From: Elusimicrobiota bacterium
GTDB taxonomy: Bacteria; Elusimicrobiota; Elusimicrobia; F11
DNA length: 64,000 nt
Assembly (NCBI GenBank): GCA_044221725.1
Contig: JBGAON010000001.1
Location: forward strand, 480,001 to 544,000
Direction: 5' to 3'
Shown here: piece by piece, positions 3 through 43,312 of the stretch
Numbering within the stretch: the stretch's first letter is position 1
Layout of the letters: every line of letters starts with the position of its first letter
Made by a program: the position numbers and the translations under genes
Notes under the pieces: generated by a model
What the model was told of the DNA's origin: nothing
Databases searched by the model: none
The model's input: the letters and a program-made list of their open reading frames with translations, nothing else

Positions 3-185
3 ATTCTCCAAAAAGTTATCATGTGGGCCGCCGAAAAACGCGCACGCGTTATCGCGCTTGATGTGGACACTGCGAACGAAGCGGCCGTGCGGCTTTACAC
101 GAAATTAGGGTTTGAAATTGTGCAGCGCCGAAAATCGTCGTATCCCAAAGGAGAAGACGCGTTTGTGATGAGGAAAAAAATATGA
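3..185 (+). CDS. RimI-like GNAT acetyltransferase, C-terminal part (truncated by window edge)
   Basis: Manual translation ...IALDVDTANEAAVRLYTKLGFEIVQRRKSSYPKGEDAFVMRKKI* matches the GNAT/RimI C-terminal motif N-x-x-A-x-x-LY-x-K-x-GF...Y...EDA-x-x-M. Confidence 0.75.
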   Translation: MLQKVIMWAAEKRARVIALDVDTANEAAVRLYTKLGFEIVQRRKSSYPKGEDAFVMRKKI

Positions 186-2455
186 GGTCGTTCAAGGAAA
201 CGTCATTCCCGCGAAAGCGGGAATCCAGTTTTCAAAGCTTTTTCAAAAGATTGTTTACGGCCTGGATTCCCACTTTCGCGGGAATGACGTTCGTTACACT
301 TTGCGCTATTCACTGCAGTTCGGCAACGGTTTTTGGGGCGCAGACGGGCCAGTCGGGTGCCGCGTACCAATCTTATTTGAAAGCGTTGTTGCTCGAGAGC
401 CAGGGGAATTTTGCGGCGGCGAATTCTGAAATTGAAAAAGCTCTGACCGTCGCGCCCGAAAGCGCGTTCTTGCACCGAACGGCGGCCGAACTCGCATTGC
501 GGCTTGGCCAAGTGAACCGCGCGAGCGACGAAATTGAGCGAGCGATCGAACTGGATCCGAAAGACGTTCGTGCGCTGATTGTTGCGGGTCAAATTCAATG
601 GGCGCTTGGAGATTCCGAAAAGGCCGAGGCACGCCTGCGCCGTGCGCTGGCGATCAACCCCGATGAGTCCGAGGCGCTGATCAGCTTGGCCGGCACCATC
701 ACACCGAAAAATCCGAAAGAAGCGATTAAGCTTTACAAAGATTTCCTTGTGCGTCATCCGAACGAAGCCGAAATTCAAGAACGGCTCGCGCAGCTTTACC
801 AGGCCACGAACGATTTCAGCAACGCGAAGAAAACATGGGAAGAGGTGCTCGAGAACAATCCGAGTTCGGTGCGCGCGCATTTGGCGTTGGCACAGCTCGC
901 TGAAATAAATTTCGATACCGCCACCGCCATTTCTCATTACGAAGGGGTGTTGGTTCAAGATCCGACGAACTTGCCATTGTTGTTGCGTGTCGGAGAATTG
1001 CGTTACCGGAACAACGATATGGCAAAGGCAAGCGAGGCGTTCACGAAAGCGCAAACGGTTTCGCCGTCGAGTCCCGCCGCCAATTTCTGGCTCGCGCTTC
1101 TTGCTGAAAATCGTGGTGATTGGCCCGAAGCCATTCGGTTATTAAAGAATGTTCCGGAAGGCACGCGCGAGACCGGCGTGATGCTGCGGCTGTCTTATTA
1201 TTATTCGCAAAACGGCCAATACAAAGAAGCGGTGAACGTTCTCAAGCGTTTGTCCGATAGCGATCCGTCCAATATCGATTTCCTAAATTATTTGGCGATT
1301 GCGTACGAGCAAGACAAACAGTTATCGAACGCCGAGGTTACGCTTAAAAAAATCATCGCTCTCGACCCGAACGATCCCGAAGCGCACTTTCATTTGGGTA
1401 CGTTGTACGACCGCACAAACCGTTTCTCGAAAGCCGAGGAAGAATTGAAGACCGCAATTCGACTGAAGCCCGATTTTCATATGGCGCTTAATTACCTTGG
1501 TTACAGCTACGGGGATCGCAATGTTCATTTGGACGAGGCCGAGAAACTTGTGAATGACGCGATTGCATTCGATCCACACAACCCCGCGTATCTGGATTCG
1601 ATGGGATGGATTTATTTCCGACAAGGCAAGTTGGACAAAGCGAAAGATTTCCTTCACGAAGCGTCGAGCCAAGTGAACGACTCGGTGATATGGGACCACT
1701 TCGGCGATTTGCAGATGGCGAGCGGTCAGCCCGTGGATGCCGTAATGTCGTGGGACGAGGCGCTGAGACTCAATCCCAAAGAAAAGGCGATTCAAGCGAA
1801 GATGGAAAAAGCAATGGCCCGAATCTCGAAAGCGGACAAGGTGGATTTGTTCGTTCGTCGCTCGCTCGCGAACTACGGAGATTTGGAGTCGATTCAGGGG
1901 CTATCGGAAATAACGGTTTGCCAGTCGAAGCCATGCTTTCGATCGAAAGCACAATTCGGCTACGAGCGCGGTGCCGATATCAAACTCGAAATTCCGGGTC
2001 CGCTGTCGGGTCCCGTGCTGTTGCTCACGAAAAAACACGGTCAAGCCGCAAAATACGGAGCGCTTCATCCGCAATTCCAAACGGTCGAGAAGGATGTGGT
2101 GCGCGCGTTTGACCGCCTCGAAAGTTTGCTTTCGGCCGAAGTGTTTAAGCAATACGATTTGAAAGAACTCGAACAGAATTCCGTTTTGAAGGGCAACGAG
2201 CTGTCGGCGTCGGCGAAAAATTTTCGTATCACATTCAATGCAAAAACCGGTGTCGTAAAAACGCTGGAATGGAACGACGATGATGGCCAGGAAACGCTTT
2301 CGATCGGAGCGGGCACAACGCCGCAATCGGCCTCGCTCGCAAAGACGATGGAATGGAAACGTGCGGCCACAAATTTTTTGATTCGAATTGAATTCCTGAA
2401 TCCCGTTGTTGCGACGAGCACCGCTTCCGACGAAACCGCCTCTTCGCGTCCTTGA
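182..2455 (+). CDS. Exported TPR-repeat protein with a C-terminal non-TPR (LolB/LolA-fold-like) domain
   Basis: Many TPRs including ALNYLGYSY and AYLDSMGWIYF motifs typical of the TPR gene upstream of lolB-ispE; ATGA overlap with the upstream gene. Confidence 0.8.
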   Translation: MRSFKETSFPRKRESSFQSFFKRLFTAWIPTFAGMTFVTLCAIHCSSATVFGAQTGQSGAAYQSYLKALLLESQGNFAAANSEIEKALTVAPESAFLHRTAAELALRLGQVNRASDEIERAIELDPKDVRALIVAGQIQWALGDSEKAEARLRRALAINPDESEALISLAGTITPKNPKEAIKLYKDFLVRHPNEAEIQERLAQLYQATNDFSNAKKTWEEVLENNPSSVRAHLALAQLAEINFDTATAISHYEGVLVQDPTNLPLLLRVGELRYRNNDMAKASEAFTKAQTVSPSSPAANFWLALLAENRGDWPEAIRLLKNVPEGTRETGVMLRLSYYYSQNGQYKEAVNVLKRLSDSDPSNIDFLNYLAIAYEQDKQLSNAEVTLKKIIALDPNDPEAHFHLGTLYDRTNRFSKAEEELKTAIRLKPDFHMALNYLGYSYGDRNVHLDEAEKLVNDAIAFDPHNPAYLDSMGWIYFRQGKLDKAKDFLHEASSQVNDSVIWDHFGDLQMASGQPVDAVMSWDEALRLNPKEKAIQAKMEKAMARISKADKVDLFVRRSLANYGDLESIQGLSEITVCQSKPCFRSKAQFGYERGADIKLEIPGPLSGPVLLLTKKHGQAAKYGALHPQFQTVEKDVVRAFDRLESLLSAEVFKQYDLKELEQNSVLKGNELSASAKNFRITFNAKTGVVKTLEWNDDDGQETLSIGAGTTPQSASLAKTMEWKRAATNFLIRIEFLNPVVATSTASDETASSRP
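199..291. repeat. Palindromic REP/RPE-like element (family A) inserted in frame in the TPR gene 5' end
   Basis: AACGTCATTCCCGCGAAAGCGGGAATCCAG...CTGGATTCCCACTTTCGCGGGAATGACGTT; translates as SFPRKRESS...WIPTFAGMT. Confidence 0.9.
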
Positions 2456-3333
2456 TTCTTCGCGCGCACGCCAAAGTTAACCTTCATTTGGATATCGGCC
2501 CGCGCCGTACGGACGGATATCACGACTTGGAAACCGTTTTCCAGGAAATATCGCTGCACGACACGCTGCGGTTTTCCGCTCATCCAAGCGAAATAATTTT
2601 GAGTTTGTCTCGAAACGCATCCGCACTTCCCACCACTTCCGATAATCTTGTTGTCCGCGCGCTCGAGATGCTCCGCAGAAAGCTCCGCGTGAAACGCGGC
2701 ATACGCGTGCATCTCACGAAGGAAATTCCAATGGGCGCCGGTTTGGGAGGGGGTTCGTCGGACGCGGCCGCCGCTTTGTGGGGCGGTTGGCTGCTTTGGA
2801 ACGCGCGCTCGGCAAAACGGCCGAGCAAAGTCCCCGCGGTTCTATTGTCGTGCGCTAAAAAACTGGGCGCCGATGTTCCATTCTTTTTGCAGGGCGGACT
2901 CGCTTACGCCACCGGCATTGGAGAAAAGCTGACGCCGCTCGCACCGCAGCCGAAGCGGTGGATGGTCCTCGTCTACCCGCGGGTGCACGTGGCCACGCCA
3001 CTCGCCTACAAGTTACTGGATGAATCCCGGGCGGGCCCTCGCCCTAACCCTCTCCCTAAAGGGAGAGGGAATAAGATCACCTCTCCCTTTAGGGAGAGGT
3101 CGGCCGAAGGCCGGGTGAGGGAATTCAACTCCTTCGAACCCACCATCCTCAAAAAATTCCCCGAAATCGCGCGCGCCAAGAACGCATTGCTCAATGCCGG
3201 CTGCACCGGCGTGATGATGTCCGGCTCCGGATCCACGGTCTTCGGGTTTGCGAAATCCAAATCCGCCGCGCAAAAGGTTGTTGCACGACTCCGTCGTAAA
3301 CCGTGGGATTCGTTCGTGGTTCATACTCGTTAG
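2452..3333 (+). CDS. ispE: 4-diphosphocytidyl-2-C-methyl-D-erythritol kinase
   Basis: AKVNLHL, DGYHDLET, GHMP motif IPMGAGLGGGSSDAA, LGADVPFF, MSGSGSTVF. Confidence 0.97.
   Translation: MILRAHAKVNLHLDIGPRRTDGYHDLETVFQEISLHDTLRFSAHPSEIILSLSRNASALPTTSDNLVVRALEMLRRKLRVKRGIRVHLTKEIPMGAGLGGGSSDAAAALWGGWLLWNARSAKRPSKVPAVLLSCAKKLGADVPFFLQGGLAYATGIGEKLTPLAPQPKRWMVLVYPRVHVATPLAYKLLDESRAGPRPNPLPKGRGNKITSPFRERSAEGRVREFNSFEPTILKKFPEIARAKNALLNAGCTGVMMSGSGSTVFGFAKSKSAAQKVVARLRRKPWDSFVVHTR
3036..3121. repeat. Palindromic element (family B) in frame within ispE
   Basis: CCCTCGCCCTAACCCTCTCCCTAAAGGGAGAGGG...CCTCTCCCTTTAGGGAGAGG...CCGGGTGAGGG; translates as PRPNPLPKGRG...SPFRERSAEGRVR. Confidence 0.85.
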
Positions 3334-4921: not shown

Positions 4922-5854
4922 GTGACACCAATGAAACTTTTTGCGGGGAACGCAAACCCCGCGCTGGCCCGGGCCGTAGCGAAACAGTTGAAGATTCCAT
5001 TGGGAAAAGCGCACGTGGGGCGTTTCCCGGATGCGGAAATTGAAATAAAGATTTTGGAAAACGTTCGTGGTACCGATTGCTTCATTTTGCAGCCCACGAG
5101 CGAGCCGGCCAACGACAATTTGATGGAGCTCCTCCTTATTATGGATGCGCTCAAGCGTGCCAGTGCGAACCGTATCACGCCGGTCATTCCGTATTTTGGA
5201 TACGGTCGGCAGGACAGAAAGGCGCAGCCGCGCGTACCGATTTCGTCGAAGCTCGTTTCCAATTTGATTGTAACGGCCGGTGCCGACCGCGTTTTGACCA
5301 TGGATTTGCACGCGGGGCAGATTCAAGGGTTTTTCGATATTCCGGTGGATCACATTTACACGAACCCGGTGTTCATTAATTACTTTAAGCACAAAAGAAT
5401 GAAGGACGTGGTTGTTGTTTCACCCGATGCTGGTGGTGTGGAACGCGCAAGAGCGTTTGCGAAACGGCTGGAATACGATTTGGCGATCATCGACAAACGT
5501 CGCACCTCGCCCACCGATGCCGACATATTACATGTGGTCGGTGACGTGCGCGGCAAAGTGGCGCTCATCGTCGACGATTTGGTGGACACGGCCGGCACGT
5601 TGGCCAAAGCAGCAAAGGCGCTTATTAGTTCGGGTGCCACAAAAGTTTACGCGGCGTGTGCGCATGGCGTGCTCGCTGGTCCGGCGCTTGAGCGTTTGGA
5701 AAATGCGCCGCTCGAAGAATTGGTGATCACGGACACGATCGCGCTGAACGGAAAGAAGCTTAGCAAGATCAAAGTTTTAACGGTGGCTCCGCTGTTGGCG
5801 GAAGCGATCAAAAGAATACACGAAGAGCGCACGGTCAGTGCGTTGTTTGTCTAG
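4922..5854 (+). CDS. prs: Ribose-phosphate pyrophosphokinase
   Basis: PYFGYGRQDRK, DLHAGQIQGFF, VSPDAGGVERA, VDDLVDTAGT. Confidence 0.98.
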   Translation: MTPMKLFAGNANPALARAVAKQLKIPLGKAHVGRFPDAEIEIKILENVRGTDCFILQPTSEPANDNLMELLLIMDALKRASANRITPVIPYFGYGRQDRKAQPRVPISSKLVSNLIVTAGADRVLTMDLHAGQIQGFFDIPVDHIYTNPVFINYFKHKRMKDVVVVSPDAGGVERARAFAKRLEYDLAIIDKRRTSPTDADILHVVGDVRGKVALIVDDLVDTAGTLAKAAKALISSGATKVYAACAHGVLAGPALERLENAPLEELVITDTIALNGKKLSKIKVLTVAPLLAEAIKRIHEERTVSALFV

Positions 5855-5868
5855 AGAGGGAGAATGTC

Positions 5869-6609
5869 ATGCAGAGAGTTGAATTAGAAGTAAAGCCCCG
5901 CAATTTGGGCGATAACAAGAAACGGAACTTGAACCAACTTCGGGCCGAAGGCTGGGTGCCGGGGACCCTCTATGGAAACGGAAAGCCGGAGGAAATTGCG
6001 GTGGACAGCCGCATTTTCTCGAAAGCCATTCATACGAAAGCCGGAATGAACGCGCTCTTTAACGTGAAGTTTGGTTCGGAAACAAGCTTGGCCGTCGTGA
6101 AAGAAGTTCAGCGCCACATCTTGAAACACAATCCGATTCATGTGGACTTCAAGCGCATCAACATGAAGGAAAAATTGTCGGTGAACGTTCCGACGCACAC
6201 GGTCGGCGAAGCCCCCGGCGTTAAGAATTCCGGCGGTATTCTCGAACACATCACGCGCGAAATTCGCGTTAAGTGCTTGCCGGACGATATTCCGGTGTCA
6301 ATCGATATCGATGTGACGAAGCTCGAACTTGGCCATGGCGTGAAAGTGAAAGACTTGCCGGTCTTGAACGGTGTTGAATTTTTGACGAACGCGGAAACGA
6401 TTATCGTGAACGTTGTTGCTCCGAAGGTTGAAGAAGAGAAGGCGCCGGCGGCGGACGCAGCGGCAGCAGCGGGAGCGCAGCCCGAAGTTATCGCGAAGGG
6501 CAAGAAAGAGGAAGAAGGTGCGGCTCCGGCAGCGGGTGCGGCGAAACCGGCGGCGGGTGCTCCAGCAGCGAAAGCAGCGGCTCCAGCGAAAGAGGAAAAG
6601 AAAAAATAA
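5869..6609 (+). CDS. rplY: 50S ribosomal protein L25/Ctc with Ala/Pro/Lys-rich tail
   Basis: LRAEGWVPGTLYG, KEVQRH, HVDF, GEAPGVKNSGG; prs-rplY-pth synteny. Confidence 0.95.
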   Translation: MQRVELEVKPRNLGDNKKRNLNQLRAEGWVPGTLYGNGKPEEIAVDSRIFSKAIHTKAGMNALFNVKFGSETSLAVVKEVQRHILKHNPIHVDFKRINMKEKLSVNVPTHTVGEAPGVKNSGGILEHITREIRVKCLPDDIPVSIDIDVTKLELGHGVKVKDLPVLNGVEFLTNAETIIVNVVAPKVEEEKAPAADAAAAAGAQPEVIAKGKKEEEGAAPAAGAAKPAAGAPAAKAAAPAKEEKKK

Positions 6610-6616
6610 TGTTTTG

Positions 6617-6690
6617 TCGTCATCCTGGAATGTCTCAATCCAGGGCCCATTTGAAAATGGATCCTGGCTTAAAGCATGCCAGGATGACGA
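6617..6690. repeat. Palindromic element (family A variant) between rplY and pth
   Basis: TCGTCATCCTGG...CCAGGATGACGA terminal inverted repeat with inner CCAGGGCCCAT/ATGGATCCTGG arms. Confidence 0.8.
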
Positions 6691-6705
6691 ATTAGACGAA
6701 TTGAA

Positions 6706-7263
6706 ATGCTTCGCCTTGTCGTTGGGCTCGGGAATCCAACTCCAGCCTACAACCACACGCGGCACAATGTGGGTCGGGAGTTCATAGAGTTTCTCGCGGA
6801 AGAAGCCAAAGAAAGTTTCAAAAAAAGTCGGCAGGCGGAAACATTCCGTCTGCCGATTTTTGTTGGTGCGAAGCTTTTGTGCTTCATGAACGAATCCGGC
6901 GGGCCGATCAAGAAACTCATGGAAACCGAACAAGCAAAGCCCGACGAGATCCTCGTGGTCGTGGACGATTTCATGATTCCGTTCGGAACGTTGCGGTTGC
7001 GGCCCGGTGGTTCCTCGGGCGGTCACAACGGGCTCAATTCGACGATTGATCATTTGGGTACGGACCAATTTCCGCGGTTGCGCGTTGGCGTGGGCCCGGT
7101 CCCCGCGGGACAAGACCCGGCCGATTTTGTTTTAAGGAAGTTCACACGCGATGAGCAAACACAATTGCCCAAAATCTACGCGGCCGCCAAACAGGGAATC
7201 GATGTGCTCGTGACGGACGGCGTTCAAAAAGCTATGAACGCAATGAACAAATCTTACGTATGA
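6706..7263 (+). CDS. pth: Peptidyl-tRNA hydrolase
   Basis: VGLGNP, TRHNVG, FMNESG, GGHNG, RLRVGVG. Confidence 0.96.
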   Translation: MLRLVVGLGNPTPAYNHTRHNVGREFIEFLAEEAKESFKKSRQAETFRLPIFVGAKLLCFMNESGGPIKKLMETEQAKPDEILVVVDDFMIPFGTLRLRPGGSSGGHNGLNSTIDHLGTDQFPRLRVGVGPVPAGQDPADFVLRKFTRDEQTQLPKIYAAAKQGIDVLVTDGVQKAMNAMNKSYV

Positions 7264-10200
7264 CGACGAAAACAGCGCCCTTTGTCCATTTGCACAACCA
7301 CTCCGAGTACAGTTTGCTCGATGGCGCCGCGCGTCTCACCGACGACAAAGGAAAACCTTCCGAATTTATTCAAACGATGGCCAAGATGGGCTACACGGCG
7401 CTCGCGCTCACCGATCATGGCAATCTTTTCGGTGCAATTGAGTTCTACAAGGTCTGCAAAGAAGTTGGCATCAAACCGATCATCGGGATGGAAGCCTATT
7501 TGGCTCCGAGTTCGCGGTTCGACAAAGAAGCGCGTCTTGGCGAGGCGGCGTATCATTTGACGTTGCTCGCGTACACGCGCGAAGGCTACGAGAATCTCAT
7601 GAAGCTTTCGTCGACGGCCTATCTCGAGGGATTCCACTACAAGCCGCGCGTCGACAAAGACATCTTGGCCAAGCACGCGAAAGGCATTATGGGTTTCTCC
7701 GGTTGTTTGAAAGGCGAAATTCCCGTCGCGCTTCGCGCTGGAAACTTTGAAGCCGCCAAAAGTTTGGTGGAGCAATACAAAGGGATTTTTGGTCCGGCGC
7801 ATTTCTATTTGGAAGTCATGGATCACGGACTCGAGATGCAGAAAGAACTTCTGCCGAAACTCATGGAGCTCAGCAAGGCCACCGGTACGCCGCTCGTGGC
7901 CACGAACGATTGTCATTATTTCAAACGCGATGACCATGTCGCGCACGACGTTGTGCTTTGTATTGGCACCGGGAAGAAAATCACCGACGAGAAACGCATG
8001 AAGTACGGCGCGCCCGAGTTTTATTACAAGCCGCCCGAGGACATGATGAAGAAGTTTAAAGATCTTCCGGACGCTCTCTCCGCCACGCTCGCCATTGCCG
8101 AGCAGTGCGAAATGAAAATTGATTTCGATCAGCTGCTTCTTCCGCGTTACGAGGTTCCGGTCGGTGACACGCCCGAATCTTATTTGAAGCGGCTCTGCTT
8201 GGAAGGGCTCACCCGTCGCAAGGGTCATATTCCGGACAATTATCGTCAGCGGCTCGAAATGGAACTCGGTGTCATTAACAAGATGGGTTTCGCGCCGTAC
8301 TTTTTAATTGTGTGGGATTTCATTCACTTCGCGCGCCAAAACGGTATCCCGGTTGGTCCAGGCCGTGGCAGCGGCGCCGGAAGTCTGGTGGCCTACAGCC
8401 TGGCGATCACGTCGATTGATCCGATTGAAAATGGACTTCTTTTCGAACGGTTCTTGAACCCGGACCGTCGCTCGATGCCCGACCTTGATATCGATTTCTC
8501 CGACGATGGTCGCGACCAAGTGATTCAGTACGTGCGCAAAAAATACGGTGAAAATTGCGTGGCGCAAATTATTACGTTCGGTTCCATGCTCGCGCGCGGT
8601 GTTGTGCGTGATGTGGGTCGCGTGCTCGAGATGCCGCTTCCAGAGGTGGACAAAATCGCCGGGCTCATTCCGCGCGAGCTCGGTATCACCATTGACGCAG
8701 CGATGCAAAGCGTCCCCGAGCTGAAACAGCTTTACAAAACGAACGCCGAGGTGACGCGGCTCATCGATCTCGCAAAAAAACTTGAAGGGCTGAAGCGCCA
8801 TACCGGCGTGCACGCGGCCGGCACCGTGATATCACCGACGGACATCACGGCCTTCACTCCGCTCTCGAAAAACAACAAAGACATCGTGACGACGCAATTC
8901 GACGGTGAAACGCTCGGTAAGCTTGGTCTTCTTAAAGTTGACTTTCTCGGTTTGCGCACGCTGACCGTCATTCGCGATGCGCTGAACTTGATTCACAAAC
9001 GCCACGGGCCGGCGTTTGATCTTGACAAAATTCCTGTTGATGACAAGGCAACCTACAGTTTGTTGTGCCGGGCCGACGTGTCGGGTGTGTTCCAGTTGGA
9101 ATCGGGCGGAATGCGGGATTTGTTGCGGAAACTAAAGCCCGCGAGCTTGTCGGATATCACGGCGCTCATCTCGCTCTTCCGACCGGGCCCGATGGGTTCT
9201 GGTATGTTGGACGAATTCGTTGCGCGCAAAAACGATCCGTCGAAAATCAAATTCGACCATCCGCTCATGAAGCCGATCTTGGAAGAAACGTACGGTATCA
9301 TGGTTTATCAGGAGCAAGTCATGCGCATATCGCAAGCGCTCGCCGGTTTCACGCCCGGCGAAGCTGACGGTTTGCGCAAAGCGATGGGAAAAAAGATCAA
9401 AGAAGAACTCGAGAAGCAGCGCGGCAAATTTATTGATGGTGCGGCGAAGAACAACATCAAAGAGAAACTCGCGAACGATATTTTTGACCTGATGGTGCAC
9501 TTCGGAGGTTACGGCTTCAACAAAAGCCACGCGTCCGCCTACGGCCTCATTTCGTATCAGACCGCGTACTTGAAAGCGAATTTCCCAGTCGAATACATGG
9601 CGGCGTTGTGCACGAACGAAATTGGGCGTTCCACAATGGCGTCCAAGGAAGAAGAGTCCAAGCTGGTTGGATATTTAAGCGATTGCCGCGATATGAACAT
9701 CGAAGTGTTGCCGCCCGATGTGCAAATTTCCGAAGCCACATTCACCGTTGAAAGTGCTGTGAACGCAACAAAGCCGCTGCTTCGATTTGGTTTGCTTGCG
9801 ATTAAAAACGTCGGCACGGGCGCTGTTGAATCGATTGTGAAAGCGCGCGGCGACGGGCGTTTCGAATCGCTGCAAGATTTTTGTTCGCGCATCGACACGC
9901 GGCTCGCGAACAAGCGCGTTGTGGAATCGCTGATCAAAGCCGGCGCGGTCGACCATATGTTGAATCTTCCGCCACGCCAAGCGAGGCCACGTCTCATCGA
10001 AGGGGTCGATGCCGCTCTTTCCGCAAGCGCGAAGCTGAAACAAGATGCTGACTTTGCCGAGCAATCGTTGTTCGGCGAAATCGAAATTAAATCGATGACA
10101 AAAGTGCCATCGATTCAAATGAACTCCACGGCCGAATGGACCCAGGAAGCGCTGCTGCAAAATGAGAAAGAAGTGTTGGGGCTTTATTTGTCGGGGCATC

Positions 10201-15755: not shown

Positions 15756-17546
15756 GTGAGCCCGCAGAAAGCCAAATCCGTCTCGGAAGGTTCTCCATCT
15801 TTTAACGCCTGGGACGTTGCGATCGGTCTTATCGCGTGTGCAATTGTTTTTGTTTTTCCTCTGTTCCCCGATGAAAAGTTGGTTCGATTAAAACTCGAGG
15901 CGCTTGAAATCGGTATTTTTATTTTTGCGCTCGTCGTTGGACTCAGGACGATCGTTGAATCTCTTCCCTCGATCAAAACATGGCCCGCTACGATTTACGC
16001 CATCCTCTCGTGGGTTCTCGTGACGGCGATTTTCGTGAGCACCGCAAAAGAAAAATCACAAGCGATCGTCGAGTGGCGTCGCGTGTTGTTGGCCGCCACC
16101 GCGTTTATAAGTTTTTCGTTCGCCGCGCTTTCCGCTGATTGGAAGAGACGATTTCTGCTCACGTGGATTTTTTCCGGAACGCTCGCCGCCGTTTACGGGT
16201 TGCTGCAATTTACTGGCGGTGTTGGACCCATCGGTGTTCCTCAAATGGCACGAATTATGAGCACGTTTGGAAATTCGATTTTCTTCGCGGCTTTCTTGTC
16301 GCTCACTATTTTCGTTGTGTTCGCGGCAATATCGAGCGAGCGTGTCGACGAGGTTCGCTGGCTTCTGTGCGGGACCGTGATGATTCTCGTTGTGGCTTTT
16401 TATCACGCTCAGTCGCGGGCCGGCTGGCTTGCTTTCGGTGTTGCATTTCTCGTTGGAATTCTCGCGAAGTTCGGGCGGCGAAAAATACCACCGGCTGTTT
16501 GGCTTGTGGTTTTTTTTACGATGGGCGTGTTTTATTTTAAAACGGAAAAAATTTGGAAGCGGGATCAAGCGCATTTGCTGATTTGGCGGGACACGGTGCG
16601 GATGTGGAAAGATCATCCGGTGGCCGGCGTGGGGCTGGGCGCGTTTCACACCAATTTCCCGAAATACGCGCAGTCGGATCTGGTATCAAAATGGCCGCCC
16701 GGTCAATTTATCGTAAACGAAGCGCACAACGAATACCTGCAAACATTAGCGGAGGCCGGAATTATCGGACTTTGTGCGTTTCTTATTATTCCGATTTTGT
16801 TTTTTATTTCTGAGCGGCCGTGGAATTGGCTCACCATTGGCGTGCTCGGATCTTTCTTACAGAACTTCTTTTCGGTTGACATGCGGTTCGGCGTGTCGCT
16901 TGCAAACACATTTATGTTGATGGGGTTGGTGTCCTCGCAAGAACCGGAACAGCGAGCGGCGTCGAAGAAATTAAATTTATCAATCCCGCGCGTCCTGCTC
17001 GCCGCGGCTTGGATAGTTTTCCTGGTCGGGGTTGTCTGGCCGCGCCTTATGCGTCCGTATCGCGCGCAGAAAGAAGTCGCTGCCTCATCGGATTTTTTCG
17101 ATCAGCGGTTGCTCGATCCAACAAAAACCGTGGAGGATTTGGAACGTCTCGCGGAAACGTACCCGAACGAACCGGCGGTGTTCGAACGTTTGGCGTATGT
17201 GTATGCGAAGCAAATAAAAATGCCCGACAATCGAATCGATTTACCGATGACCACAAAAGCGATCGCAACATACGAGCGACTCATCGAACTCGATCCGCGT
17301 CGTATGGGGGCGTACAACAACCTCGCAAACATTTATTACACAATCGGTCGCGTTCCGAACGCGATCCAAACGTGGCAACGCGCGCTCGCAGTGAATCCGG
17401 ATTTCACGGATATTCATTTGAATTTGGGGAAGGTTTTGTTCGTGCAGGGAAAACTCAAAGAGGCGGCGGAGCATTTCGAGAGCGTGCTTAAGAAGGATCC
17501 CTCCAATGCGGAGGCAATCGTATATATGAAGAGGATGGTCGAGTGA
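15756..17546 (+). CDS. O-antigen ligase (Wzy_C) family membrane protein with C-terminal TPRs
   Basis: Multiple TM helices, STFGN, SRAGW, GVGLGAF, AHNEYLQ..AE.GIIG, followed by TPRs. Confidence 0.85.
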   Translation: MSPQKAKSVSEGSPSFNAWDVAIGLIACAIVFVFPLFPDEKLVRLKLEALEIGIFIFALVVGLRTIVESLPSIKTWPATIYAILSWVLVTAIFVSTAKEKSQAIVEWRRVLLAATAFISFSFAALSADWKRRFLLTWIFSGTLAAVYGLLQFTGGVGPIGVPQMARIMSTFGNSIFFAAFLSLTIFVVFAAISSERVDEVRWLLCGTVMILVVAFYHAQSRAGWLAFGVAFLVGILAKFGRRKIPPAVWLVVFFTMGVFYFKTEKIWKRDQAHLLIWRDTVRMWKDHPVAGVGLGAFHTNFPKYAQSDLVSKWPPGQFIVNEAHNEYLQTLAEAGIIGLCAFLIIPILFFISERPWNWLTIGVLGSFLQNFFSVDMRFGVSLANTFMLMGLVSSQEPEQRAASKKLNLSIPRVLLAAAWIVFLVGVVWPRLMRPYRAQKEVAASSDFFDQRLLDPTKTVEDLERLAETYPNEPAVFERLAYVYAKQIKMPDNRIDLPMTTKAIATYERLIELDPRRMGAYNNLANIYYTIGRVPNAIQTWQRALAVNPDFTDIHLNLGKVLFVQGKLKEAAEHFESVLKKDPSNAEAIVYMKRMVE

Positions 17547-17561
17547 GTGTTTTGACTTTGA

Positions 17562-17652
17562 AATCGTCGCTCCCGCGCAGGCGGGAACCCGGGTACAGTT
17601 AGACGATGCAATTCACGGTGTCTGGGCCCGCGCCTGCGCGGGAACGACGATT
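17562..17652. repeat. Palindromic element (family A) spanning the rlmD start
   Basis: AATCGTCGCTCCCGCGCAGGCG...CGCCTGCGCGGGAACGACGATT; 22-bp inverted repeat with one mismatch. Confidence 0.88.
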
Positions 17653-18904
17653 GCCCTTGTGTCCCCACTTCGGGTTTTGCGGTGGGTGTTCGAAGCAAAA
17701 TCTTCCGTATGAGGAGCAACTGCAAGCGAAGGAGCAGTCCGTTCGGAAATTGCTCGCGGGACTGGCCGTGCAGAATTTTCATTCGATTCTTGCTTCTCCG
17801 GATATTTATTTTTATCGGAACAAGATGGAATTCTCGTTTGGGAATGAGAAGGATCTCGCGATTCTCGGACGGGACCCTCACCCTGAGAGCCGCGTGCATC
17901 TTGGTCTCCATCCCAAAGGGCGGTTTGCGCTTGTGACGCCGACGCCGGAGTGTCAGTTGTTATCGGAGAGAAGTCAGCTGATATGCCGTGCGGTTGAAGA
18001 ATGGGCGAGCGATCATCAAGTTTCTGTTTATGTTCGAAAGAATGGAAAGGGCGATTTGCGGCATCTCGTGATCCGAGAAGGAAAAAATACCGGCGATTGT
18101 TTGGTGAACCTCGTATCGAAATCCACCACGCCGCATGTCGATGCCCTTGCCGAAAGATTGCGAGCCCTTCCTATTTCCACTTTCATTTGGACCGCTTACG
18201 ATGGATTGTCGGACGTCGCGGGTGGTGAAGGCGGCAAGGTTTATTGGGGCAACGGTGTCATCCACGAAAAGATTGGTGGGACGTTGTTTCGTGTCAACGC
18301 AAACTCGTTCATGCAAACGAACACGCGTGCCGCTGAGATATTGGTTCAATTGTTGAGGTTGTGGGTTTCGTCATCCCGGCACGCTTTTGGCCGGGATCCA
18401 GGTGTTTCTGAGGAAAACCTGGGCCCCGTACCGTTGAATCGGGACGGCCAAAAGATTGCCGGGGCGACACTATTGGATCTCTACTGCGGCGCCGGAACGA
18501 TTGGTTTGAGCTTGGCGAATTTGTTTGAGCGCGTAATAGGGATTGAAATAAATCGCCAGGCTATTCACGACGCGAACGAAAACCTGCGCGCCAACAATGT
18601 TGGAGACGTGAAGTTTCTAGAGGGGAAAGCGGAGGACGCGGCTGCCTTTTTGTCTGCCGACGAGATTCGCTCGGCGACCATTGTGGTGGATCCGCCGCGG
18701 CCGGGTCTCCATCCGAAACTTGTCGACACGTTGCTTCTGTGGAAAGCGCAGCGACTCTTTTATGTGTCGTGCAATCCGGAATCGTTGGCACGCGATTTGC
18801 AGCGGTTGAGCGCGGCTTATGAGGTTGCGCACGTGCAGCCGCTCGATTTTTTTCCGCATACCGATCACGTTGAAACGGCCGTTCAGCTTCGTTTAAAGGC
18901 CTGA
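17606..18904 (+). CDS. rlmD: 23S rRNA m5U methyltransferase (RlmD/TrmA family), lacking the N-terminal TRAM domain
   Basis: CPHFGFCGGC Fe-S motif, YRNKMEF, SFMQTN, DLYCGAGTIG, VDPPRPG, YVSCNP, FFPHTDHVE. Confidence 0.88.
   Translation: MQFTVSGPAPARERRLPLCPHFGFCGGCSKQNLPYEEQLQAKEQSVRKLLAGLAVQNFHSILASPDIYFYRNKMEFSFGNEKDLAILGRDPHPESRVHLGLHPKGRFALVTPTPECQLLSERSQLICRAVEEWASDHQVSVYVRKNGKGDLRHLVIREGKNTGDCLVNLVSKSTTPHVDALAERLRALPISTFIWTAYDGLSDVAGGEGGKVYWGNGVIHEKIGGTLFRVNANSFMQTNTRAAEILVQLLRLWVSSSRHAFGRDPGVSEENLGPVPLNRDGQKIAGATLLDLYCGAGTIGLSLANLFERVIGIEINRQAIHDANENLRANNVGDVKFLEGKAEDAAAFLSADEIRSATIVVDPPRPGLHPKLVDTLLLWKAQRLFYVSCNPESLARDLQRLSAAYEVAHVQPLDFFPHTDHVETAVQLRLKA
18370..18468. repeat. Palindromic element (family A variant) in frame inside rlmD, with an 18-nt nested insertion
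   Basis: GTCATCCCGGCACGCTTTTGGCCGGGATCCAGG...CCTGGGCCCC[18 nt]GGCCAAAAGATTGCCGGGGCGAC; 99 nt. Confidence 0.85.
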
Positions 18905-23156: not shown

Positions 23157-26100
23157 TTGAAAAACCGGCTAGCCCCTCAGAAAATCATCGCGCTATTTTT
23201 GTGTACCGTGCTGTTTGCGACGCACGTGGCGTTCGCCCACTTGCCCGAGACGTCTTTGTGGTCCGAACGACGCACCGGGTCGTCGCCCTGGAATGCCGCT
23301 ATTGAGGGCCCACGTTCCGTTGGGACCCTATGTCCTGACGTGAGCCGTTCCCGAATGAATGGTTTGTTCGTGGGCGCGATGGATTTATCGTCGCTCAATC
23401 CCTTTGTTACGGTTCGCAAAGTACTCAAACCCGCCGGCCACTCGAAATCGGTTGTGTTGCACATTCAAGATATTCACGGGAACCAAGAAGCCCAACTCAA
23501 TATCAGCAGAGCGCTCCAGAAACTAAACGAACAGAAAAAGATTGATATGGTCGCGCTCGAAGGTGCCTACCGAATATTTGATTTGTCGGTATTCCGTCAG
23601 TTCCCACGTCCGAACACCATTCGGGCGGTGGCAAATTACCTTTTGCGCGAAAAAAGAATATCCGGGCCCATTCACGCGATGATGACGTCTCCGGTCGTCG
23701 GCGTTTCTGTTATTGGCGTCGATGACGCAAACCACTACGCCGCCAATGTTCAAGCCGTGCGCGATGCGAGTTCACAGAAAGACAATGTTCAGCACGTTCA
23801 ATCCGTGCAACGCATCAAACTTGATTCCGAGAAGCGCAAATTGTTCAACGCGGCACTTTTGGATTTCGATCGCGCCGTCGAAGCGTATCGTTCGGAAAAA
23901 CTGCCGTTCGCCTCGTATGTGAAGTTGTTGGCCACGGGCCGATCGGACGTGTCGCCGGCGGTTCGTGATTATCTTGAGGTTCTGCGCATCGAAGCGAATA
24001 TCAATTTTTCACAAGTCGAAATAGAAAGAGATCTTTTGGTTGCGCAGATTGTTTCTCGGAATCGCGTGATCGCGGAACAGCTTCACAAAATGGCGTTCGC
24101 GTTTCGTGCGCAACAGATCGATCACGAGGCTTTTTATCTTTGGTTGAGAGACGCGGCCCGAAAATCCCACGTTCCAATCGAGAACTTTTTGGTCTTTAAA
24201 GAATATCTGCGCTACGTTCTATTGTCCGATCGCATTGACGTGGAAGCGGTTTTAGCGGAGGCGCGTCAACTCGAGCAACAGAGATTCCGCTGGCTCGTAA
24301 AAACAGCGGATGAACGAAGGTTGGTCGACGCGTCGAAAAGATTGTACTTGGAGTCTAAGCTCGTCGATTTTTCTTTAACCAAAAGAGAGTGGGAAGAGTA
24401 CGAGGAATTAATACCCCACCCTGCCCTCCCCACTGATAAGGCGTGGGGAGGAAAACTTTTTTTCACTAACCCTAAAACCTCGGGGGGGGTGCTCCCTCTC
24501 CATGTCTCCTCAATGGGGAGGGTAGGGTGGGGTATAGACGCTGTAAACCTTTCCCCTTTCGAACAGTTTTATCGGCAAGCGGAGCTCCGTGATGGGGCGA
24601 TGGCGAATAATTTTTTGAACGCCCAACGTTCAATAAACAATCTTCCACGAACAACGAGCGTTCTTATCACTGGCGGTTTTCATTCCTCCGGTATCGATGA
24701 CGCGCTTACAAAGGCAGGTTGCACCGTTGTCTCGATCGTTCCTCGCGTCACAAGCGCGGATGCGTCAAAAGCCTCGGCCTACTTAAGCGTTTTTGCTCAA
24801 GAAAAATCTCCGCTTGAAAAACTTTTTGAGGGACAAAAATTATTTCTCGCCAACGATCCGATGGCGCCTCTGATCCAATTTGTAGAAGCGCCGGTCGAGG
24901 TTGCCCTTTTTGAGGCGGCCAATGCGTTGTCAGCCGGGACCGAGACGATGTTGCCTTTGCCCGCTGATGCAACATTGAAAATTGATCGCGCCGGTGTGGG
25001 CTCGGCTCAGGGGGTGCTGACGCGTGGCGTAAGTGTGGTTCCGGTTGAGCTACGCGCCAACCCAAATGAAATTCTCGAAATGACCGACCGGTCCGTTAGC
25101 CCTTCGGTCGCGCGGCGGGCGATTGGTGGCGTGCGACGATTTTTTCACTGGTTGTTACGGAAATGCGGATTCGTTTATGCCGATGAAAACGCCGAGTGGA
25201 CCTCGAATCTCCATCTCTACGAGGCGGGTCAATTGCTGCTTCAAAGGGGTGCCGTCGGCGATGTAAGAGGTTCTTCAAACAATGTCGGTTTTGTTGGAAT
25301 GATGCCATTCAATCCGTTTGCGGTGTGGTACGAGGAGGCCTCGGAGCGTGCGGAGCAGGGCCATAGAGTGTGGCTTCCGTACGTAATCGCCGCGATGGGC
25401 GGCGTGTTCGAAGAATTGGTGATCCGAAATCTTCTTCAATTCGGAATTCTTGAAGCGTGTTTCGGCATGAGTGCGTGGTGGTCTGCGTTCGTTTACGCAT
25501 CGCTCTTTGCGACGGTTCTGCATTCGAAAATATACACAGCGGAAAGCCCCACGGCCGTTGGTGTAAATTATCTTCTCGGGTGGCAGCGTTGGATTTTGTT
25601 CGCGCTCGCGGTCGGATTGGGTTCGACCGGAGACCTTGAGGTCATCACCTTGGGTCACGCATTTTTTAATCCTCTCATGAGGTACATCGGTGGTCCGCTC
25701 GGCATGATGACAGAGCCGAACAATAAGAAAAGAGCAAAACCGTTTGATCCAGATGCATCAATTCTTTACACGATGCATCTGTTCAACCATTTGGACTCCG
25801 AATATCGAAAGCTCTGGAACGCGCCGGAGCCGGAGATGAAAAATCCGATGTACGCCCGTCCGGGCCAAAGACTTTTTGTGAAAGAAAATCTTTCCGTGGC
25901 CGAACGAACACAAATCGACGATCTTGTCGACACGCTAATGAAAGGTCAGCGCGGAGTGCCGGGTGCGAAACCTTTCCGCTACATGACGACGGCCGAGCAC
26001 CTTTTGATTGGCAAAGCTTTGCGCTCGAATTTGCGGGGGGAAGGCGCTGCAAGCAACAACCTCACCGAACCGCAACGGGAATTTTTGAGAAATTTGCTGG

Positions 26101-38853: not shown

Positions 38854-41408
38854 TGGAAACCTCAACGGTCCCTTCCTCCCCAGCCGCTCCAAGCGCCAAA
38901 GCGGCGACGCCGGTGATGCAGCAGTACCTTTCTATTAAGCAGCGCTACGCGGATGAGATTGTGTTTTTCCGGCTCGGCGATTTTTACGAGATGTTTTTTG
39001 AGGATGCCGTGAAGGCCGCGCCCATTTTGGAAGTGGCGCTCACGCAGCGGCAAACGGTTCCCATGTGCGGTATTCCGCACCACGCGATGACGAGTTATCT
39101 TTCGAAGTTGATCAAGGCCGGCATCAGCGTGGCGATTGCCGAGCAGCTTCAGGATCCGAAGCAAACGAAGGGCATGGTCAAGCGCGATGTGGTGCGTGTG
39201 GTGACCCCCGGCACGCTGGTCGAAGATGAACTGTTGCCGTCGCGCGCGAACAATTTTTTGTTGGCGATCACGGTTTCTCCATCCGGAAAAAACACGTGGG
39301 CGCTGGCGGCCGCCGATGTTTCGACGGGCCGCCAATGGGTGGGGGAACTCGACAACGATTTTCATTGGAACACGCTCAAGGCGCACGTGGCGTCTCTGAA
39401 CCCCAGCGAGATTCTTCTCATCGGTGACGCTAATAAATTGCCGTCTTATTTCGCGGGGAATGCCGTTGTTCGCTATCAACCAACGCCGCTCGCCGAACCG
39501 TCGCTCAAGGGCCAAGTTCTCTCGGCCATCCGAAATTATTTGGAGCGGGATCATTCCGAAGCTGTCAAAAGTTTGCGAGCCGCCGAACCTTTGCCGATGT
39601 CGGCCGGACAAACGCTGTTCTTGGATGAAACCGCGATTCGTCATTTGGAGCTCGTTCAATCGGCCGATCCGGGCGCCGTGATTTCCGGAAAAGCGGGGCC
39701 GACCCTCATCTCCGTGCTTGATCAATGCGCTACGCCGCTTGGAAGTCGGCTGCTGCGCTGGTGGCTGCTGCATCCGTCGCTCGATAAAAGAGTAATTCGG
39801 GACCGGCATGATCAGGTCGAAGACCTGGTGGAAGACTCGCTGCTAAGGACCGATGTTCGGAATTTGTTGACCGGTGTCGCCGATCTCGAACGTATTTCCG
39901 TTCGCACGCAAGCGGGCACCGTGTCGCCGCGCGATTTGGAAGCGCTGCGTCAAAGTTTGGCGCGTGCGCCGCAACTGGTCGCTGCGCTTTCTAAGATTCC
40001 GGCGTTTGATTCGTTTGCGGCGCAGCTCTTGGTTCCGTCGGAACTCACGGAAATTCTTTCGATGCAACTCGCGGAGAGCCCCTCGGCGAAACTCGTGGAT
40101 GGCGGAGTGATTCGCGAAGGTTTTAACGCCGAGCTTGATGAGCTGCGGGGCCTTCGGCGCAGCGGGAAAAAGTGGATCGCAGAGATGGAAGCGGCCGAGC
40201 GCGAAAAAACCGGCATCGGATCGCTTAAAGTCGGATACAACGACATCTTTGGCTATTTCATCGAAGTGTCGAAATCGAATTTGTCGAAAGTGCCCGCCGA
40301 TTGGATTCGCAAGCAGACCATGGCGAACGGCGAACGTTACATCACGCCCGCGCTCAAAGAACAGGAAGAGAAAATTTTGGGAGCCGAAGAAAAGATTCGC
40401 GTGCTCGAAACAAATCTGTACGCGGAACTTGTGCATCAGGTCGGCGCGTTCGGTCCCACGCTGGCGACATTGTCGGAAGCGATCGCGCACATCGATGCCG
40501 TTCTCTCGCTCGCTGATGTGGCGGTCGCGCACAATTTTGTTCGACCGAAAATTTCTGACGCAAACGAACTCGTCATCAAAAACGGCGAACACCCGATCAT
40601 CGCGAAGCAAATTGGTCGCGACCGTTTTATTCCGAACGATTTGTCGCTGTCCGCCGATTCCAATCGAATCGCGGTGATCACCGGCCCAAACATGGCCGGT
40701 AAGTCCACCTATCTTCGGCAGAATGCTCTTATCGTGATTCTCGCACAGATGGGATCGTTCGTTCCGGCCAAGAGCGCCGAGATAGGTTTGGTTGACAAAA
40801 TTTTTACGCGCATCGGCGCGTCGGATCGGCTCACGCAAGGACAATCGACGTTCATGGTGGAGATGCAAGAAGTCGCAACGCTGCTCCGCAACGCGACGGA
40901 CCGGAGTTTGCTGATCCTCGACGAAGTCGGTCGCGGCACGTCGACGTACGACGGCGTCTCGATCGCGTGGGCGGTGATTGAATTCCTTTCCCGTTCCGGC
41001 CCGCGAACGTTGTTCGCCACGCACTATTTCGAACTCACACAACTGGAAGGAAGATTGCCCGGTGTCTTCAACGCGCACGCGACGGCCAAGGAATGGCCTG
41101 GCCCGGACGGTCGCAAGCAAGTGGTTTTCCTGTACCAGATTCTTTCCGGCGCGGCCGACCGCTCCTACGGAATTCATGTGGCCGAAATGGCGGGGCTGCC
41201 GGACGATTGCATTCGGCGCTCGCGCGAAATTCTTAAACAACTTGAATCGGGCGATCACAAACTTCAAAACAAACCGGTGGCGGCCTCGAGTCAGCTCGAG
41301 TTGTTTGACTCGCATCCGGTCGTCGAGGAATTGCGGGCGTTACGTGTGGACACCATGACACCGCTTGAAGCTCTCAATACATTGAATCGTCTGAAGGGGA
41401 AACTATGA
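38853..41408 (+). CDS. mutS: DNA mismatch repair protein MutS
   Basis: TPVMQQY, FRLGDFYEMF, TGPNMAGKSTY, STFMVEM, DEVGRGTST, SYGIHVA, QLELF clamp motif. Confidence 0.98.
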   Translation: METSTVPSSPAAPSAKAATPVMQQYLSIKQRYADEIVFFRLGDFYEMFFEDAVKAAPILEVALTQRQTVPMCGIPHHAMTSYLSKLIKAGISVAIAEQLQDPKQTKGMVKRDVVRVVTPGTLVEDELLPSRANNFLLAITVSPSGKNTWALAAADVSTGRQWVGELDNDFHWNTLKAHVASLNPSEILLIGDANKLPSYFAGNAVVRYQPTPLAEPSLKGQVLSAIRNYLERDHSEAVKSLRAAEPLPMSAGQTLFLDETAIRHLELVQSADPGAVISGKAGPTLISVLDQCATPLGSRLLRWWLLHPSLDKRVIRDRHDQVEDLVEDSLLRTDVRNLLTGVADLERISVRTQAGTVSPRDLEALRQSLARAPQLVAALSKIPAFDSFAAQLLVPSELTEILSMQLAESPSAKLVDGGVIREGFNAELDELRGLRRSGKKWIAEMEAAEREKTGIGSLKVGYNDIFGYFIEVSKSNLSKVPADWIRKQTMANGERYITPALKEQEEKILGAEEKIRVLETNLYAELVHQVGAFGPTLATLSEAIAHIDAVLSLADVAVAHNFVRPKISDANELVIKNGEHPIIAKQIGRDRFIPNDLSLSADSNRIAVITGPNMAGKSTYLRQNALIVILAQMGSFVPAKSAEIGLVDKIFTRIGASDRLTQGQSTFMVEMQEVATLLRNATDRSLLILDEVGRGTSTYDGVSIAWAVIEFLSRSGPRTLFATHYFELTQLEGRLPGVFNAHATAKEWPGPDGRKQVVFLYQILSGAADRSYGIHVAEMAGLPDDCIRRSREILKQLESGDHKLQNKPVAASSQLELFDSHPVVEELRALRVDTMTPLEALNTLNRLKGKL

Positions 41409-41410
41409 TT

Positions 41411-41478
41411 CGTCGTTCCCGCGGAAGCGAGAATCTAGGCACCTATGGTGGCTGGGCCCCCGTCTTCGCGGGGCGACG
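41411..41478. repeat. Degenerate family A palindromic element between mutS and mutL
   Basis: CGTCGTTCCCGCGGAAGCGAGAATCTAG...CTGGGCCCCCGTCTTCGCGGGGCGACG. Confidence 0.8.
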
Positions 41479-41491
41479 CTGAAGCAATTTT

Positions 41492-43312
41492 ATGGCGCCA
41501 CAAGTTAAGCAACTATCCGAGGATTTGATCGCGCGCATCGCGGCCGGTGAAGTGGTGGAGCGGCCGGCTTCGGTCATCAAAGAGCTTGTCGAAAACAGTT
41601 TGGACGCGGGCTCCACGCACATCGCGGTTGTGATTGAAGGCGCGGGCCGAACGTTGATTCACGTGTCCGATAACGGCTGCGGAATGTCGAAGGAAGATGC
41701 GTTGCTCGCGTTGCGGCGGCACGCGACATCAAAAATCTCGAAGTTCGAAGATTTGGAAGCGCTCAATACCTTTGGGTTTCGGGGCGAAGCGTTGCCGAGC
41801 ATTGCGGCGGTATCGAAGCTCACGCTCACCACGCGCACCGCCGATGCGTCATCGGGTTGGGAATTCGTGATTGAAGGGGGAAAGCTCATCAGCGAAAAGC
41901 CGATCGCGCGCGAGCCGGGCACGACGATCGATGTGCGCGACATCTTCTTTAATACACCAGCGCGATTTAAATTTTTGAAATCCGATCCGACCGAGCGCGC
42001 CCAATGTTTGCGCGTCATGGAAGAAATGATTTTCTCGAGCACACACGTTACGTTCGAGTTGCAAACGGAGAAAGAAAAGCCGATTGTCTTCCGGGCGAAC
42101 AAGGAAAACGACGAGCGCCAGAAACCCGACGTCGTTAAGACGCGGCTTACCGAGGCCTGGGGGGCGCGGTGGGCCCGCAGTCTTCTGCCGGTCTTCAAGG
42201 CGGACAATCATTTCCGCGTGGCGGGTGTGGTCAGCAATCAAAGCGCGCATCAAACAACAACGCGGTATCAATTTCTCTACATCAATGGTCGCCCGGTTCA
42301 GAACCGCCGGCTTTCGCGCGCGATCTATGATGCGTACCAAGGTCAATTGCCGTCGTTGCGTCATCCTGCGTGGGCCTTGTTTCTGGACCTTGATCCCGCA
42401 ACAATCGATGTGAATGTTCATCCATCCAAGCGGGAAGTAAAAATTACGCACGAGTCCGAACTGTATGGATTTTTAAATTCGGCAATCAAAGCCGCGTTGC
42501 GAGGGGAATCCGCGCCAATGATTGAGCGCCGTGTCGCAAGTTTTCTTGCAGCGCCCGCGCCGAGTGTGCCCCTGGAACGACGTGCACCGCCTTCTTCGAC
42601 GCCATGGAACGTGGTCGTTCAGTCAAACACAAACCAGGTGTATAAGCCGCTTTCGTCGGTCGGGTCGTCGGCCGAGTCCGTCGATCCTTTGCCGGGGCTC
42701 GGAACATCGGAACCGCACGCCGATATTTCGGATTTGCGCGACCCGGAGCTCGTTGTTCTCGGACAAATTCGCAAAACGTATATCGTGGCTCAAACGCGCA
42801 ACGGACTTTTAATTGTGGATCAGCACGCGGCCGCAGAATGCGCCGCGTACGAACGATTGATGTTTAATCTCAAAGCCGAAAAGCGCCCCGTACAAATGTT
42901 GCTTGTGCCGTTCACGTGGGAAGTGGCCATGTCTCTTTTGCCGCAGGTGCAAGAAAATTTGGACGTGCTCGCGCGCATGGGTTTTGTGATTGAACCGTTT
43001 GGTGGTTCCACGTTTGTAATTAAAGGTGTGCCCGCACAGCTCCGCGAGAAATTTGATGTGCATTCGCTGATGGACGGTTTGAGCGATGAATTGGAGTCGC
43101 ACCACCGCGCGCGCGATTTGGATCATCGCCTTGCGGCGATGGCCGCGTGCAAAAGCTCGGTCAAAGCCGGTGACCCGCTCGACAATCAAGCGTGCGCCGC
43201 GATCATCAATCAACTCACTGTCTGCAATTCCCCGTTCACGTGCCCGCACGGACGTCCGACCGTGATCCGCACACCCTACACCGAACTCGACCGCCGCTTC
43301 CGCCGCGCCTAA
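41492..43312 (+). CDS. mutL: DNA mismatch repair protein MutL
   Basis: IAAGEVVERPASVIKELVENSLDAG, GFRGEAL, DVNVHPSK, endonuclease motifs DQHAAAE and CPHGRP. Confidence 0.97.
   Translation: MAPQVKQLSEDLIARIAAGEVVERPASVIKELVENSLDAGSTHIAVVIEGAGRTLIHVSDNGCGMSKEDALLALRRHATSKISKFEDLEALNTFGFRGEALPSIAAVSKLTLTTRTADASSGWEFVIEGGKLISEKPIAREPGTTIDVRDIFFNTPARFKFLKSDPTERAQCLRVMEEMIFSSTHVTFELQTEKEKPIVFRANKENDERQKPDVVKTRLTEAWGARWARSLLPVFKADNHFRVAGVVSNQSAHQTTTRYQFLYINGRPVQNRRLSRAIYDAYQGQLPSLRHPAWALFLDLDPATIDVNVHPSKREVKITHESELYGFLNSAIKAALRGESAPMIERRVASFLAAPAPSVPLERRAPPSSTPWNVVVQSNTNQVYKPLSSVGSSAESVDPLPGLGTSEPHADISDLRDPELVVLGQIRKTYIVAQTRNGLLIVDQHAAAECAAYERLMFNLKAEKRPVQMLLVPFTWEVAMSLLPQVQENLDVLARMGFVIEPFGGSTFVIKGVPAQLREKFDVHSLMDGLSDELESHHRARDLDHRLAAMAACKSSVKAGDPLDNQACAAIINQLTVCNSPFTCPHGRPTVIRTPYTELDRRFRRA

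Follow-up and report, generated by a model that had tools for sequence, protein, structure and literature searches.

The idea that ribosomes can be relayed through a short intergenic ORF into the next gene is already in print for the MIRUs and for the attC sites. According to the portion of PMC12548453 drawn upon here, the mycobacterial MIRUs are short mobile repeats that insert at start codons and carry an ORF of their own coupled at -4 (Supply et al. 1997, cited therein), and this ORF is thought to soften the insertion. In most of the reporter studies treated there, spacings from -4 to +3 couple most efficiently, and coupling weakens outside that range. In the corresponding portion of PMC8876359, the short ORFs of attC hairpins are described as restoring downstream translation via termination-reinitiation. 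Like ORF-11 of attI1 (Jacquier et al. 2009, cited in PMC8876359), they unwind an intergenic hairpin in this manner, and they hand ribosomes on to a gene whose own initiation region is poor. Among the CGTC-tagged REPs (Di Nocera et al. 2013, PMC3733652) are dRS3 of Neisseria and RPE-4 and RPE-6 of Rickettsia. Their loops, in the parts of that paper on which we rely, measure 4 nt in family 1 and 5 nt in families 2-4, with other loops allowed in some species.

Described here is a junction between rplY and pth at which a CGTC-type repeat is crossed by a mini-ORF. It lies in a 64,000-nucleotide stretch of an Elusimicrobiota genome, hereafter the window. As in the REPs covered by the same parts of PMC3733652, the repeats of this genome have a CGTC end tag, an 8-bp stem and a CCA tail, form head-to-head dimers, are sited just past upstream stop codons, and occur in frame at protein N-termini. 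The loop of the focal subfamily, however, is 9 nt rather than 4-5 nt. Those parts of the paper describe no coupling ORFs through the repeats, and the five phyla that they list do not include Elusimicrobiota. With the MIRUs, as presented in the portion of PMC12548453 cited above, the junction shares a short mobile repeat and an ORF that would be coupled to the next gene, and a softening of the insertion is likewise what we propose. Unlike the MIRU ORF, the bridge is an optional feature that keeps to no fixed frame, and at the focal junction it is spaced +10 from the next gene; the repeat, moreover, belongs to another family and forms a strong palindrome. Instead of start-codon insertion with coupling at -4, the focal site displays the +10 spacing and no ancestral overlap. 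The comparison with the attC ORFs (PMC8876359, same portion) is close with respect to the proposed hairpin unwinding and to the delivery of ribosomes to a poorly initiating gene, here pth. The setting differs in that a dispersed REP dimer lies between housekeeping genes without integron or cassette context, and the attC relay is backed by experiments, the present one being predicted from sequence. The feature would work like the MIRUs and the attC ORFs, yet it is a member of neither. It is a real feature built on a known repeat, and its proposed mechanism is of a known kind, in a repeat family new to that mechanism; the statistical support is mixed. In the literature searched, which leaves out most subscription papers, nothing was listed on bridge ORFs through repeats of the CGTC type.

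The rplY-pth junction and its repeat

The features of the junction and of the three other dimer sites discussed below are listed in Table 1.

Table 1 Features of the rplY-pth junction and of three further dimer sites (window positions)
Feature	Position	Strand	Remark
rplY (bL25/Ctc), 246 aa	5869..6609	+	Pfam, NCBIfam
GAGGA within rplY	6592..6596	+	12 nt ahead of ATG 6609
Bridge mini-ORF, 28 codons	6609..6695	+	start not ancestral
TTG, possible relic start	6614..6616	+	4 nt past rplY stop
Head-to-head CGTC-tagged REP dimer, subfamily B, 72 nt	6618..6689	.	long imperfect hairpin
pth (peptidyl-tRNA hydrolase), 185 aa	6706..7263	+	ATG start; Pfam, NCBIfam
Overlapping ATG 182 and subfamily A dimer 201-289	182..289	+	in-frame N-terminus of 757-aa TPR gene
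Overlapping GTG, 19-codon ORF to 17602, dimer 17565-17649	17543..17649	+	
ATGA on mutS stop, 25-codon ORF, dimer 41411-41476	41405..41494	+	

The TAA stop of rplY occupies positions 6607-6609, and its last base is common with the ATG of the mini-ORF. A TAG closes the mini-ORF at 6695, leaving 10 nt to the pth ATG at 6706. A preliminary description of the window had reported both this 28-aa ORF, ending just short of pth, and the lack of an evident Shine-Dalgarno sequence for pth. The coordinates were confirmed, and no anti-Shine-Dalgarno pairing was found upstream of pth (0 kcal/mol). The distance between the GAGGA motif and the ATG at 6609 exceeds the usual Shine-Dalgarno spacing, and the start region of the mini-ORF is predicted to pair with the extended stem (unpaired probability 0.26). 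That the mini-ORF might be a known small protein or RNA family was rejected: its peptide matched nothing in Pfam or NCBIfam, and a search of Rfam at gathering scores returned only a tRNA in the window. By simple scans, no promoter-like site was seen in 5700-7300 and no intrinsic terminator was called at the hairpin. An assembly error was ruled out by a contig from an independent study that is identical across 6580-6802; a contig from an RNA run spans 6469-6668, and it cannot show transcription. A 7-nt tandem duplication (twice) at 6686-6704, 3' of the element, provides the stop codon of the mini-ORF, and duplicated element ends occur at other copies as well.

The hairpin is strong, with a folding energy of -49.5 kcal/mol for 6590-6730 (z -4.8). 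There are 62 dimers and 40 single units in the genome (102 loci), distributed among three subfamilies, and a first-pass scan of the shuffled 871-kb contig gave no matches. An unpaired CGTC tag (or TGTC or CCTC) is present at both ends of 6618-6689 and in most of the 62 dimers. Likewise, a stem of 8-9 bp starting with AT and a CCA tail can be read along the element; the left unit has two deviations at the base of its stem, and the right unit retains the AT start. The preliminary description had spoken of a family A element recurring at the other three window sites. The focal element belongs, in fact, to subfamily B, with the 9-nt loop, and the other three are members of subfamily A, in which the loop, as seen in 201-289, is 4 nt. 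Judged by these features the focal element fits the CGTC REP superfamily; no numbered family is assigned, the comparison having been made apart from the consensus figure of the paper. A longer, subfamily C dimer is located in frame inside rlmD (18369-18468), and elsewhere in the genome three further dimers are intragenic. In genome G001 (loci L141, L148, L159 and L166), tandem partial copies of the first 15-17 nt of the element precede in-frame dimers and are positioned in N-terminal leaders.

Origin of the overlapping starts

It had been noted in the preliminary description that a start codon overlaps the upstream stop at all four window dimers, and this is indeed the case. The outcome, however, is not the same at each. 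Site 182 is a fusion with the TPR gene rather than a mini-ORF. The ORF from 17543 dies in the dimer loop, 3 nt short of the ATG at 17606, which is in frame with rlmD. The ORF from 41405 stops at 41482, 9 nt before the mutL ATG at 41492, with which it is in frame. Full bridges are thus present only at 6609 and 41405. The GAGGA/GGGGA motif said to lie upstream each time is suitably placed at 182, 17543 and 41405 (7, 7 and 4 nt from the start) and poorly placed at 6609 (12 nt). The four-of-four count was a lucky sample, for genome-wide 16 of the 40 co-directional dimer junctions carry an ATG or GTG overlap.

In the two closest relatives the rplY stop is followed by 4 nt and a TTG start for pth, with no element; in a third relative the start is an ATG at +9. 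The TTG at 6614 occupies the pth start position of the two closest relatives, and it now opens a 57-codon frame that runs past the pth start out of frame. Across the class, 134 loci were examined, and omission of ten without an adjacent pth left 124 junctions; in only one of these does a start in frame with pth overlap the rplY stop. The relatives' TTG and ATG starts and this single in-frame overlap rule out the ATG at 6609 as the ancestral start. Comparison with these relatives shows that, as judged from the genomes compared, an insertion into a short spacer displaced the pth start. The bridge at rplY-pth is not ancestral, and not every insertion comes with one.

The other three window sites present a different picture. 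An ATGA precedes rlmD in 3/3 syntenic relatives, the TPR gene has an ATG overlap in 3/5 relatives and a TTG in a fourth, and mutL has an ATG overlap in 2/4 assessable relatives and a TTG in a third. From these comparisons, an ancestral overlap holds at 182 and 17543, and probably at 41405. An ATG overlap is found at 13/40 co-directional dimer junctions versus 18/340 convergent and 35/398 long-gap gene ends. In the reverse comparison, in which the overlap junctions of relatives were matched to the empty orthologous site in this genome, an in-frame overlap was observed in 9/12 versus 5/26 (p=0.0016, with 3 sites that also carry an element omitted). The suggestion that elements lie immediately within a coupled start of ancestral origin is thus borne out generally but not at 6609 itself. 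The proposed genome-wide enrichment is seen over the control gene ends, and the rate at dimers is near that of co-directional junctions as a whole, 27% of which have an ATG overlap. That elements are only tolerated with a bridge was too strong a statement: 24/40 junctions have no ATG or GTG overlap, and 8/16 overlap ORFs end inside the element.

These rates bear on a rival reading, to which we accord somewhat less than an even chance, namely that the mini-ORF is irrelevant. The overlap starts would then be relics of old coupling, footprints of the element end motif, or chance, and pth would initiate unaided on the A/U-rich stretch after the hairpin, the frames of a palindrome being often open. 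Indeed, 144/372 frames through dimers are open, 15% of the frames that lack a start (40/261) finish close to a start codon, and ATG/GTG overlaps are about as common at dimers (40%) as at co-directional junctions taken together (34%). The element ends themselves read ATGAC or GTGAC in 91/127 cases. Matching this, TGA stops ahead of non-fused dimers are followed by CG in 8/25 cases versus 70/736 (p=0.002), as if the element ends write the overlap at some stops. The rplY stops of two other genomes with a dimer between rplY and pth (G015 and, by sequence, G044) are among these cases. The focal TAATG, on the other hand, differs from the end motif, and although element ends could make the starts in G015 and G044, they could not make the open frames.

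Relay frames within and beyond the genus

A relay was defined as a frame that crosses the element and stops from -13 to +12 nt from the start of the next gene, and all three frames were considered at each junction. Genes were called by a self-trained model (2187 genes), such that the downstream starts are approximate. In this genome, 37 junctions were scored, 24 of whose dimers lie within 15 nt of the upstream stop. Sixteen have an ATG or GTG overlap, which leads to three fusions, five relays and eight ORFs that stop inside the element. The five relays among 13 non-fused overlap ORFs compare with 1.67 expected, and all five relay frames coincide with the start frame (p=0.004), in a set that takes in the two window cases that prompted the idea. 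Three of the relays stop on the exact ATGA of the next gene; an exact -4 spacing occurs at 3/37 junctions.

For the same genus, 95 of 97 dimers among the best-scoring matches were used, the two chosen because of this genome being left out. They provided 48 junctions with 14 overlaps and seven fusions, and relays were found in 2/7 cases by the strict rule and in 3/7 by the loose one (p=0.07). In other genera, 142 dimers gave 42 junctions, 16 overlaps and eight fusions. The strict test, fixed in advance, yielded 0/8 relays there, with four in other frames, and a looser, post-hoc rule yielded 1/8 (p=0.93); one genome in this set is 14% contaminated, and three of the cases are GTG ORFs of a single codon. 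Crossing of the hairpin alone was not clearly enriched (13/28 versus 84/261, p=0.10). Fisher comparisons with start-less frames gave p 0.002-0.03 but suffer from confounding: ATGA-coupled genes begin with ATGA, which ends any open -1 frame there. The within-junction three-frame test was relied on instead. Shine-Dalgarno sequences tend to be weaker at overlap junctions than at others (p=0.07, 16 versus 43, with some starts mis-called). Given the fusions in each set and the 0/8 relays elsewhere, the robust signal is therefore in-frame fusion, which is known, and the relay signal is limited to the genus. Taken together, the counts are suggestive of a relay at some junctions, the focal one included, with statistical support in this genus that was not replicated in other genera, and that failure favors the view of the mini-ORF as irrelevant.

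An out-of-frame ATG or GTG on the rplY stop is present at 6/124 rplY-pth junctions across the class, and these cover all three that bear a CGTC dimer (the focal genome, G000, together with G015 and G044). In this post-hoc comparison, such starts occur at 3/3 dimer-bearing junctions versus 3/121 others (p=6e-5, or 0.0013 without the focal genome). The ORFs in G000, G015 and G044 are 28, 28 and 41 codons long, respectively; all three run through the hairpin, ending +10, -4 and 0 nt from pth. Genomes G015 and G044 belong to one family, yet their elements look different, and their bridges likely arose independently. In G015 the element end supplies the pth start. At first look, the coupled frame was open across 6/8 long rplY-pth spacers. 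A general frame bias at this junction was rejected when 22 further long spacers were found to bridge 6, 7 and 6 times in the three frames, a second replication failure that counts toward an irrelevant mini-ORF; most long rplY-pth spacers have no start-bearing bridge. Locus L024 (G012) has a 25-codon ATGA-to-ATGA bridge between rplY and pth over a 70-nt spacer of low complexity that folds weakly.

Relays of the form overlap, element and ATGA occur in this genome at ruvA, carA and a radical-SAM-associated gene. At these junctions, which were selected on the result in this genome, relatives relay through different-looking palindromes by way of 39, 36 and 52 codons and spacings of -4, -4 and -13, and there are relatives with a single overlap at ruvA and at the radical-SAM-associated junction. 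Under a built-in, MIRU-like design, the element would home in on stop/start overlaps, bring along a coupling ORF, and either copy or furnish an ATGA on each side, so that the bridge would result from the insertion mechanism itself. Such a design would account for this arrangement and for the single overlaps, as well as for the ATGAC at element ends in 71/127 cases and the element-derived pth start in G015. It nonetheless seems improbable: no overlap was available for targeting at the focal site, 81/127 junctions are without an ATG or GTG overlap, none of the frames is consistently open across the elements, and dimers are also found between convergent genes. No empty-site allele was seen in the contigs of four runs, which are too patchy for this to show anything.

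Not all of the overlap ORFs reach the next gene. In this genome those before alaS, acpS, tsaC and recF die 45, 25, 70 and 38 nt short, respectively. The Shine-Dalgarno sequence is absent or weak at alaS, acpS and tsaC, and therefore such genes can manage without a relay; dead mini-ORFs ahead of essential genes are also what an irrelevant mini-ORF would predict. In G002 an element precedes tsaC and a 13-codon ORF dies, and in G003 a long insert precedes alaS with no overlap. The upstream partners at the junctions discussed are taken, from their translations, to be ruvC, purA, rodA, purH, gatB, argJ and dnaN; the name leuD was likewise assigned from the translation. Exact ATGA-to-ATGA mini-ORFs of 23-60 codons were also observed in this genome at junctions without a CGTC dimer (C2:130406, C3:309344, C4:508342, C5:139751 in minus-strand count, and C5:378463), and one of them crosses an apparent tRNA gene. 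At long-gap overlap junctions, 13/39 relay versus 88/567 start-less frames.

A proposed optional relay and other repeats of the window

The explanation that we favor is that of an optional relay. A CGTC-type REP dimer, as the comparison with relatives shows, entered the 4-nt spacer between rplY and pth and pushed the pth start, which lacks a Shine-Dalgarno sequence, about 90 nt downstream and behind a strong hairpin. Ribosomes finishing rplY may restart on the overlapping ATG at 6609, and in reading 28 codons of meaningless peptide they would unwind the hairpin. Upon stopping 10 nt before pth, they would then restart or expose its start codon. Junctions would survive such insertions in various ways, namely by in-frame fusion, by a Shine-Dalgarno sequence of their own, by a start supplied from the element end, or by the relay, and purifying selection would retain the relay at those junctions whose second gene relies on being coupled. 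The 3/3 bridges at dimer-bearing rplY-pth junctions and the 5/5 matches to the start frame in this genome argue for the relay. They are left unexplained if the mini-ORF is irrelevant, and the same goes for ruvA, carA and the radical-SAM-associated gene, where relays pass through other palindromes. Against the relay, the +10 spacing falls outside the range from -4 to +3, and the GAGGA motif is 12 nt off. On balance, the chances are roughly even that the bridge is an optional relay under purifying selection at some junctions, akin to the MIRU and attC ORFs. A stronger version, which is possible though doubtful, holds that a start-to-start relay is selected anew after each insertion at coupled junctions lacking a Shine-Dalgarno sequence, even without prior overlap; the relay would then have been gained three times independently at rplY-pth and, with unrelated palindromes, twice at ruvA, carA and the third junction.

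If true, the optional relay would account for the tolerance of strong palindromic repeats within essential-gene operons. It would also carry the MIRU/attC idea over to the CGTC repeats, which are widespread, and matched pairs of junctions with and without an element could serve to separate hairpin unwinding from reinitiation in translational coupling. If the bridge is a by-product, the junction represents an ordinary REP insertion. For annotators, ORFs of 20-40 codons and odd N-termini at such junctions derive from repeats.

Other repeats were noticed in the window. A second palindrome family, rich in CCCTC/CCCCAC and dispersed genome-wide, is represented at 24411-24535 and 3049-3099 and, elsewhere in the genome, near C4 position 199461; in one copy of this family, too, an ORF opened by an overlap has its stop in the ATGA of the following gene. 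An ORF of 2306 aa at 23157-30077, with no Pfam match, contains a single CGTC unit at 23281 together with the large palindrome at 24411-24535. Finally, a compound direct and inverted repeat with 80-nt units, unrelated to the CGTC family, is located between convergent genes at 37370-37581.
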